This document shows positions 48,698 through 49,216 of a stretch of 64,000 bases of DNA, piece by piece (the stretch's first letter is position 1; every line of letters begins with the position of its first letter). The notes beneath the pieces were generated by a model. It had not been told where the DNA came from. It saw nothing but the letters and a program-made list of their open reading frames with translations, and searched no databases. The stretch comes from a virus (Duplodnaviria; Caudoviricetes): the IMG/VR virus record IMGVR_UViG_3300035208_003026, positions 144,981 through 208,980 of that record, one strand, 5' to 3'. A program made the position numbers and the translations under genes.

Positions 48698-49216
48698 ATG
48701 CCGGTCATCGAAGATGAAAAACTTCTTGACAGGGAAGAGCTTCTAGCTAGGATACGCCAACGTCAAGAGGAAACGGGGCAGGTACTTCCTCATGGTTATA
48801 TCTATGTAGCTTCAGAACCTGAGTTCATTGGGCGTATGCCGATCCGAACTGAGCTAGAAGTTATTCCGTCTGATAGTCTTAATCAGCTCAAACTAGGGTG
48901 GCTTGTAACCACATATGAGGGTTGCGAAGTAACCATAGTTGGTTCTACGGAACCAATCACGAAGAGATTTGGTTTGCGCCCAGGTATGACAGTTATGGCC
49001 TGGGATATGTCTTGGACAGTGGTTCGAGATGGTTTGTTATCTTTAGTTCTTGAAAGAGAGAACTCTTTTGGTATCCTTGAGTTCAATAAGGACGACCGAA
49101 AATGTTGGGCTTGTCCGGCGATTATCAACAAGAAAGTGTTGGAATCCCCTAACAAGTCTTTGTTCAGTCAAGTAATTGACTTTGTTTTCGCACCCCTTGG
49201 TGCGCGTAGGAGATAG
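48698..49216 (+). CDS. Protein containing a major-capsid C-terminal-like fragment (aa ~29-75)
   Basis: LPHGYIYVASEPEFIGRMPIRTELEVIPSDSLNQLKLGWLV resembles huge-phage MCP C-terminus (recalled). Confidence 0.65.
   Translation: MPVIEDEKLLDREELLARIRQRQEETGQVLPHGYIYVASEPEFIGRMPIRTELEVIPSDSLNQLKLGWLVTTYEGCEVTIVGSTEPITKRFGLRPGMTVMAWDMSWTVVRDGLLSLVLERENSFGILEFNKDDRKCWACPAIINKKVLESPNKSLFSQVIDFVFAPLGARRR

Follow-up and report, generated by a model that had tools for sequence, protein, structure and literature searches.

In the HK97 fold, the last ~50 residues of the major capsid protein (MCP) make up one long strand of the P-domain together with the final strands of the A-domain, all of them buried in the folded subunit. 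Full-length MCP paralogues such as T4 gp24 have the whole HK97 fold, form vertices or shells and belong to the head module. Additionally, a short conserved peptide within the MCP of T4, the Gol peptide of gp23, is recognised by Lit, a host abortive-infection protein of prophage e14. The fused toxin-antitoxin defence CapRel(SJ46) is activated by direct MCP binding and then blocks tRNA (PMC9712102; PMC11578894). Effectors of its class, the toxSAS toxins, pyrophosphorylate the 3'-CCA ends of tRNA (10.1101/2024.07.05.602228), and the CCA-adding and RNA-repair genes of jumbo phages have been interpreted as counter-defence (PMC7824862). Here, we describe P0001, a 172-aa gene of a phage-G-like megaphage in which a C-terminal piece of the MCP is joined to an unrelated small domain, directly upstream of a gene for a Ro60-like protein. 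The gene lies in a stretch of 64,000 nucleotides (hereafter, the window) that covers positions 144,981 to 208,980 of the 208,980-bp IMG/VR record IMGVR_UViG_3300035208_003026 (Duplodnaviria; Caudoviricetes).

P0001 can be compared with five described systems. Its structural counterpart is the gp27-type MCP of phage G (PDB 6WKK, PHROG 2522, Pfam PF25209). Residues 28-80 of P0001 correspond to gp27 residues 220-272, and the motifs P-E-F-V-G, P-x-R, V-x-P-A-D and G-W are kept, whereas the N-arm, E-loop, spine helix and A-domain are missing and an unrelated beta-domain is attached. As with the T4 gp24-type paralogues, a second MCP-derived gene is present within one phage genome; however, P0001 comprises only a fragment, attached to a foreign domain, and is encoded away from the head module. 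The operon-linked phage Ro60 next to RNA 3'-end enzymes recalls the bacterial Rsr (Ro60)/Y RNA modules and the Ro60 of Thermus phage phiLo (PMC4201824; PMC12135203). In contrast to these modules, none of which is known to contain a capsid-derived protein, the P0001 operon encodes one, and this link is limited to one clade.

The closest functional analogies would be Gol/Lit and CapRel, as analogies of logic only. Gol demonstrates that a short conserved MCP peptide can act on its own, although it does so from inside the MCP and triggers defence, and both its MCP family and its position in the fold differ from those of the P0001 segment. No Lit-like partner was identified here. CapRel exemplifies host proteins that bind MCP in its unassembled state and then attack tRNA, which would make it a plausible target for a mimic encoded beside a CCA-adding enzyme, an RNase T and Ro60. 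In the literature searched, we found no description of a phage-encoded MCP-fragment inhibitor of CapRel, nor of MCP-fragment fusion proteins.

A capsid-derived segment joined to a small beta-domain

The preliminary description of this DNA, made from the letters alone, had proposed that positions 48782-48922, within a 172-aa open reading frame (ORF) just upstream of Ro60, resemble the last strands of huge-phage MCPs, had read them as a decoy epitope or assembly modulator, and had suggested alignment with the MCP of the same phage. That interval encodes residues 29-75 of P0001, with exact coordinates. The likeness exceeds chance by far, and the outcome named there as a refutation, a missing MCP alignment, did not occur. 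The PHROG 2522 'major head protein' profile aligned with P0001 residues 26-73 at profile positions 254-301 of 318 (E 2.7e-9). Against the MCP of this phage, BLASTP gave an ungapped match with 24 of 44 residues identical (55%) and 82% positives (E 4e-16), and hhalign matched the family profile to the same protein with a probability of 98.5% (E 2e-15). The family profile also identified residues 220-272 of the 280 in 6WKK_A, phage G gp27 (E 5.6e-13), and tblastn with P0001 matched the gp27 gene (major head protein) of Bacillus phage G. When the PHROG 2522 profile was run against the 208,980-bp record, in which P0001 occupies positions 193678-194196 (G000:C1), it found the MCP gene at G000:C1:77755-79931 (77.7-79.9 kb) and P0001 as the sole other C-terminal match. 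At the DNA level, the segment and the MCP gene share 63% of nucleotides, with 36% identity at third codon positions and a longest identical run of 8 nt. Because third-position identity is only 36%, the likeness is old and lies at the protein level, and does not reflect recent gene conversion.

Outside residues 26-80, P0001 gave no alignment to the MCP with the PHROG profile, BLASTP or hhalign. Only ~50 of ~336 MCP residues are present, and the complete HK97 fold, with its N-arm, E-loop, spine helix and P- and A-domains (~280-340 residues), is lacking. Moreover, the gene does not belong to the head-morphogenesis module; it lies between an exonuclease gene and Ro60, 114 kb from the MCP gene. Since the fold is incomplete and the gene context differs, P0001 is a derivative of the MCP family, not a member of it, and cannot serve as a capsid subunit, which agrees with the earlier judgement that the segment is too short to form a capsomer. 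The Pfam matches of P0001 (DUF2334 and HNH_repeat, E 0.3-0.5) were rejected as noise.

P0001 is a member of a widespread megaphage family, found here only in metagenomes, of which we found no description. An exhaustive phmmer search yielded 182 matches at E<=1e-3 among 1.84 billion cluster representatives, so that the family size of ~180 refers to metagenomic clusters at 50% identity. Nearly all matches were proteins of 100-200 aa that aligned over residues 35-150, which covers the MCP piece and the beta-domain together. The two parts thus constitute one conserved architecture rather than an ad-hoc fusion. The preliminary description was therefore right that the remainder of the ORF is not MCP-like, but its picture of a segment fused to an unrelated small domain gives way to a single architecture that recurs in ~180 clusters under purifying selection. 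Full-length homologues of P0001 share 54-83% identity with it, and 21 of 103 aligned members match PHROG 2522 individually. Three IMG/VR records, of 252, 330 and 428 kb, carry full-length members, and the 428-kb record is complete and has terminal repeats. Across the six phage records searched (G000-G005), the family is present once per record. The PHROG 2522 MCP is present in G000 (this phage), G002 and G003, at distances from the family gene of 114 kb, 83 kb and 238 kb, respectively; G001, G004 and G005 are fragments and carry no information on the MCP.

Outside metagenomes, no counterpart of the family was found in Pfam, PHROG, PDB or GenBank phages. A central family member gave no tblastn match among 50,697 GenBank phage records, and megablast with the locus and tblastn with P0001 against GenBank phages returned either MCP matches (phage G and LR745208) or nothing. 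With alignment A1 as the query, IMG/VR yielded no close relatives. A search for longer fused forms (302-2000 aa) found none, which is weak evidence.

Conservation within the segment follows the MCP. The family retains the MCP-invariant residues P41, E42, F43, G45, P48, R50, V55, P57, A58, D59, P61, G67, W68, E72 and G75, and its commonest residue equals the MCP residue at 27 of 56 compared positions, including almost all of the MCP-invariant ones. Over the segment, family members share on average 43% identity (range 20-74%) with the MCP of this phage. Within the family (103 members), mean pairwise identity is 40% for the MCP piece versus 32% for the beta-domain. In ten pairs of close relatives, the Nei-Gojobori ratio of nonsynonymous to synonymous substitution (dN/dS) was 0.16-0.37 for the whole gene and 0.20-0.48 for its MCP-like part; divergence at synonymous sites was considerable or approached saturation (pS 0.30-0.65). 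The N-terminal helix had the lowest ratio of the three parts in seven of the ten comparisons (0.06-0.56). In this phage-G-like megaphage, P0001 is a genuine accessory gene that is kept by purifying selection.

An AlphaFold2 (AF2) model of P0001 built with the family alignment (mean pLDDT 82) divides the protein into four parts. In the N-terminal charged helix, residues E7, K8, L10, D11, E14, L16 and Q21-Q28 are invariant in alignment A1, and the helix columns are occupied in only 13-36% of the wide family. The MCP-like residues 28-74 were modelled without regular secondary structure (pLDDT about 65-80). The compact beta-domain that follows carries eight residues that are near-invariant in the 103-sequence alignment A2 (G75, G96, L127, D132, R134, C136, W137 and N144); all eight are present in P0001, and the family profile matches the P0001 gene with an E-value of 4.7e-50. 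The C-terminal tail contains an AF2 helix at residues 156-167 with low pLDDT. It is found in P0001, P0002, P0003 and P0005 and is absent or different in P0004 and P0006, and no further ORF of the same genome was found to carry it as a tag.

The small beta-domain is predicted to fold confidently, without a convincing match in the structure libraries searched. Foldseek against PDB gave no match at E<=0.001. The best VIA match was Rieske-like (7qrm_D; 72 aligned residues, 4% identity, rmsd 2.9), with a Z of 6.1 that lies below the Z of 7-8 typical for models without a clear Foldseek match. The [2Fe-2S] ligands of Rieske domains (C-x-H ... C-x-x-H) are absent: residues 75-150 contain no His and only one family-conserved Cys (C136). 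The ESM atlas yielded only matches with TM below 0.5, and an atlas feature search reached 0.78 at best, weak RelE/PBECR-like rows among its results. In BFVD, only uncharacterised phage proteins were recovered, the best of 98 aa.

Pieces of the MCP also occur elsewhere. The MCP gene of this phage (G000:C1:77755-79934, outside the window) is split after '...MANPIR' by an insert of ~1.16 kb, which encodes a 305-aa LAGLIDADG_2 endonuclease (E 4e-35). Within it, Rfam matches a group I intron core below threshold (27 bits, E 1.4e-4). The point of insertion falls between 'PIR' and 'RNLDY', which intron-less relatives read continuously ('...PIRRNLDY...'); the insert is a probable group I intron. In several relatives, the MCP calls consist of exon 2 alone (246-266 aa). 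A second and different MCP piece in the window, a 33-aa ORF at 59335-59436 (+), copies the first ~30 exon-2 residues, with 59% identity to the start of exon 2 over 29 aa, so that its own start corresponds exactly to the end of the MCP intron. P0079, P0093 and P0120 are stand-alone mini-proteins of 64-79 aa made up almost entirely of the C-terminal MCP piece, last strand included, and their short tails are alike (…YICG or …YKCF), while in P0092, P0096, P0144 and P0151 the same piece is joined to other sequences. P0129 (333 aa) joins the exon-2-start piece directly to the C-terminal piece, skipping the middle of the fold, with unrelated sequence flanking both. Recurrence of the MCP piece, alone or with other partners, together with the piece at 59335-59436, suggests modular use of the peptide. 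Separately, a 261-aa frame in the 252-kb relative (L099; G001:C1:36365-36544, minus strand) matches MCP profile positions 42-101 only (E 5.5e-12) and may be another MCP-piece fusion gene.

The Ro60 neighbourhood

The features of the locus are collected in Table 1. The ATG of Ro60 lies 2 nt past the P0001 stop codon, and an AGGAG is located within the 3' end of the P0001 gene. A P0001 homologue stands directly upstream of Ro60 in L004, L005, L006, L013 and L014, and this adjacency was observed in every homologue contig long enough, the exception being P0005 (994-bp contig). With its 2-nt spacing or overlap, it persists down to 54% identity and not beyond. In a 20-kb locus of a relative (L004), the order is a CCA-adding enzyme on the opposite strand, a 90-aa gene, RNase_T, the zinc-ribbon gene, the P0001 homologue and Ro60, so that only the 44-aa ORF of the row is missing. 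A Cpn10-like co-chaperonin is also encoded there. In L013 and L014, a 44-aa gene overlaps the start of the P0001 homologue, and the very basic 44-aa ORF of the window may be a conserved operon micro-protein.

Table 1. Features of the P0001 gene and its surroundings, with positions in the 64,000-nt window
Feature	Position	Strand	Evidence and remarks
CCA-adding enzyme with HD domain, divergent	45668..47161	-	Pfam PolyA_pol E 5e-25, HD E 3e-6; syntenic in L004
DEDDh 3'-5' exonuclease (RNase_T family)	47566..48246	+	Pfam PF00929 E 2e-14; syntenic in L004
82-aa probable zinc-ribbon protein	48262..48510	+	PHROG 4837, E 7e-21; syntenic 74-aa gene in L004
44-aa basic ORF, K/R-rich C-terminus	48561..48695	+	Ends 2 nt before P0001 ATG
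P0001 gene, 172 aa	48698..49216	+	ORF list; MCP C-terminal piece and D-R-x-C-W...N beta-domain
N-terminal charged helix, residues 1-27	48698..48778	+	AF2 helix 12-26; Ro60-linked clade only
MCP-derived segment, residues 28-80	48779..48937	+	Homologous to own MCP exon-2 residues 195-247
Compact beta-domain, ~5 strands, residues 75-150	48920..49147	+	AF2 pLDDT 96-98
Signature motif D132-D-R134-K-C136-W137...N144	49091..49129	+	Near-invariant in A2, invariant in A4
Variable C-terminal tail, residues 151-172	49148..49213	+	Short hydrophobic helix, RRR end
Ro60-like protein, 530 aa	49219..50811	+	Pfam vWA_Ro60 E 6e-11, PHROG 850 E 4e-18

In a search for a Y RNA, which divergent Y RNAs would escape, no Rfam family reached its gathering score in the window, and no tRNA-like genes were found there. 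Between 47000 and 51600, promoter-like sites occurred at chance level, and the eight terminator-like sites (versus 3.3 in shuffles) were all weak and all intragenic. The gene for a 216-aa protein that has a coiled coil and, at its C-terminus, a hydrophobic stretch (window 50780-51430, minus strand) converges on Ro60 with a 3' overlap of ~30 nt; the same convergent arrangement was seen in L004, L013 and L014. Distant members of the family (P0016 and P0014) lie within arrays of small accessory genes. At the locus of the latter (L016:497-1608, minus strand), P0014 is situated ~1.1 kb from an HD_4 gene (RelA/SpoT-type alarmone hydrolase-like) and a NADAR gene. Genes of the HD_4 and NADAR types are typical counter-defence candidates.

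Proposed mimicry of unassembled capsid protein and its alternatives

Most plausibly, the free capsid-derived peptide imitates unassembled MCP towards a factor that recognises it. The strands that correspond to the segment would be buried in the folded MCP, so that a free copy would resemble the unassembled or nascent protein; this placement in the HK97 fold rests on the 6WKK alignment and general knowledge of the fold. The lack of regular structure that AF2 gives the MCP piece is what one would expect of a strand dependent on a partner. P0001 would then present an MCP-like peptide to a factor that recognises a conserved MCP peptide, the likeliest such factor being a host capsid-sensing defence protein that the beta-domain would hold or block. 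We tentatively favour a host target of this kind because of the accessory or early-like locations of the genes, the modular reuse of the peptide and, in this clade, the operon of tRNA 3'-end and RNA-surveillance genes. In the Ro60 clade, the gene would have gained its N-terminal helix and be co-transcribed, and probably translationally coupled, with Ro60. Such a gene row, with its CCA-adding enzyme, RNase T and Ro60, would be in keeping with a module that counters capsid-triggered attacks on tRNA or translation. In its most specific form, which we regard as quite unlikely, the decoy strand would fill the capsid-binding pocket of CapRel- or Lit-like sensors and the D-R-x-C-W domain would stop their activation, while in the Ro60 clade, where the new N-terminal helix and translational coupling would tie the protein into the operon, the phage would both blind the sensor and mend the tRNA 3' ends damaged by it.

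Several observations weigh against a mimic aimed at a host sensor. Binding of a target is something that we infer, and a free trigger-like peptide could activate a sensor instead of blocking it. No defence or anti-defence family matched: neither P0001 nor three distant members nor the 44-aa ORF preceding it had a PADLOC-DB match at E<=1. In L021 and L022, the beta-domain is kept while the MCP piece is degenerate or lost, and given these two the beta-domain may be the functional core. The complete 428-kb record (G002) contains a family member and no Ro60, and the Ro60 and RNA-repair context is thus specific to one clade. Additionally, whether the segment tracks its cognate MCP could be compared in one usable pair (G002, hand count), with 19 of 40 residues identical both to the cognate MCP and to that of this phage; the comparison has no power because the MCPs are >=83% identical. 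The predicted complex of P0001 (A2) with the exon-2 protein of its own MCP (A3) gave an ipSAE of 0.00 in both runs and counts neither way. The AF2 model of the exon-2 protein had a mean pLDDT of 33 from a shallow alignment.

The possible functional role of the beta-domain leads to the alternative ranked next, although we consider it doubtful. An ancient 3' fragment of the MCP gene would have been captured once and exapted as a structural element, now a linker or strand, while the function would reside in the D-R-x-C-W domain; here, the protein would serve as an adaptor or regulator of Ro60 and RNA surveillance, with no tie to capsids. This would fit a beta-domain that surpasses the other parts in conservation and in folding confidence and that outlasts any recognisable MCP piece in two members, as well as the tight spacing to Ro60 down to 54% identity and the clade-specific N-terminal helix, whose dN/dS is the lowest in seven of ten comparisons. 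Furthermore, one ancient capture from a donor that evolves slowly would be expected to leave family members nearer to the MCP than to each other, as is seen. However, across the 103 members conservation is higher in the MCP piece than in the beta-domain, and the piece retains MCP-invariant residues without the surrounding fold. It is also found by itself or joined to other partners, and most of the family is not beside Ro60.

The retention of MCP-invariant residues in the segment could alternatively reflect a role in building the capsid. The segment would dock on the MCP, scaffold, protease or chaperone, replacing or pairing with the native C-terminal strands, and would thereby control when, or how far, the very large, phage G-like shell polymerises. 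The co-occurrence of one family copy per record with the PHROG 2522 MCP in G000, G002 and G003, the unstructured state of the isolated segment in AF2, and the Cpn10-like co-chaperonin at the relative's locus are consistent with such a modulator. Nevertheless, we judge it unlikely, for the gene is located 83-238 kb from the head module, among accessory and RNA-repair genes, and the MCP piece has been lost in some members. Phage G yielded only its MCP with P0001, and no GenBank phage matched the central member; since no family member was found in phage G or other GenBank phages, the gene appears dispensable for building a phage-G-type capsid.

Improbable is a use as a weapon between phages, in which the mimic would poison the capsid assembly of co-infecting relatives or satellites with a phage-G-type MCP. 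Display of a conserved MCP interface peptide outside the capsid context, the accessory location and the patchy family would suit this role, but an MCP so closely conserved across the clade means that the phage's own MCP would be hit too; no sign of self-immunity was found, and the proposal is one we purely infer. Finally, that P0001 is selfish-DNA debris, a functionless stray MCP 3' end scattered by homing-endonuclease traffic, is highly improbable and contradicted as a present state by the low dN/dS over diverged synonymous sites, the intact frame with synteny conserved in >=5 relatives and the near-invariant motifs of ~180 clusters, with no homing-endonuclease remnant found near P0001 (ORF list, Pfam, PHROG), although the probable group I intron and LAGLIDADG endonuclease gene in the phage's own MCP make a homing-endonuclease origin of the piece plausible.

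Implications for megaphages and their hosts

Whatever the mechanism, these findings delineate a family of ~180 clusters that neither Pfam nor PHROG lists, a small domain that folds with confidence yet is unmatched in the structure libraries searched, and a gene that, within one megaphage clade, is a conserved partner of phage Ro60. If P0001 does mimic unassembled MCP, the family would represent a new class of phage tool, in which a virus copies an unavoidable, conserved pattern of its own shell protein to manage the readers of that pattern, be they host immunity, chaperones or assembly factors. The question of how phages cope with capsid-sensing defences would then become testable through a defined and widespread gene family.
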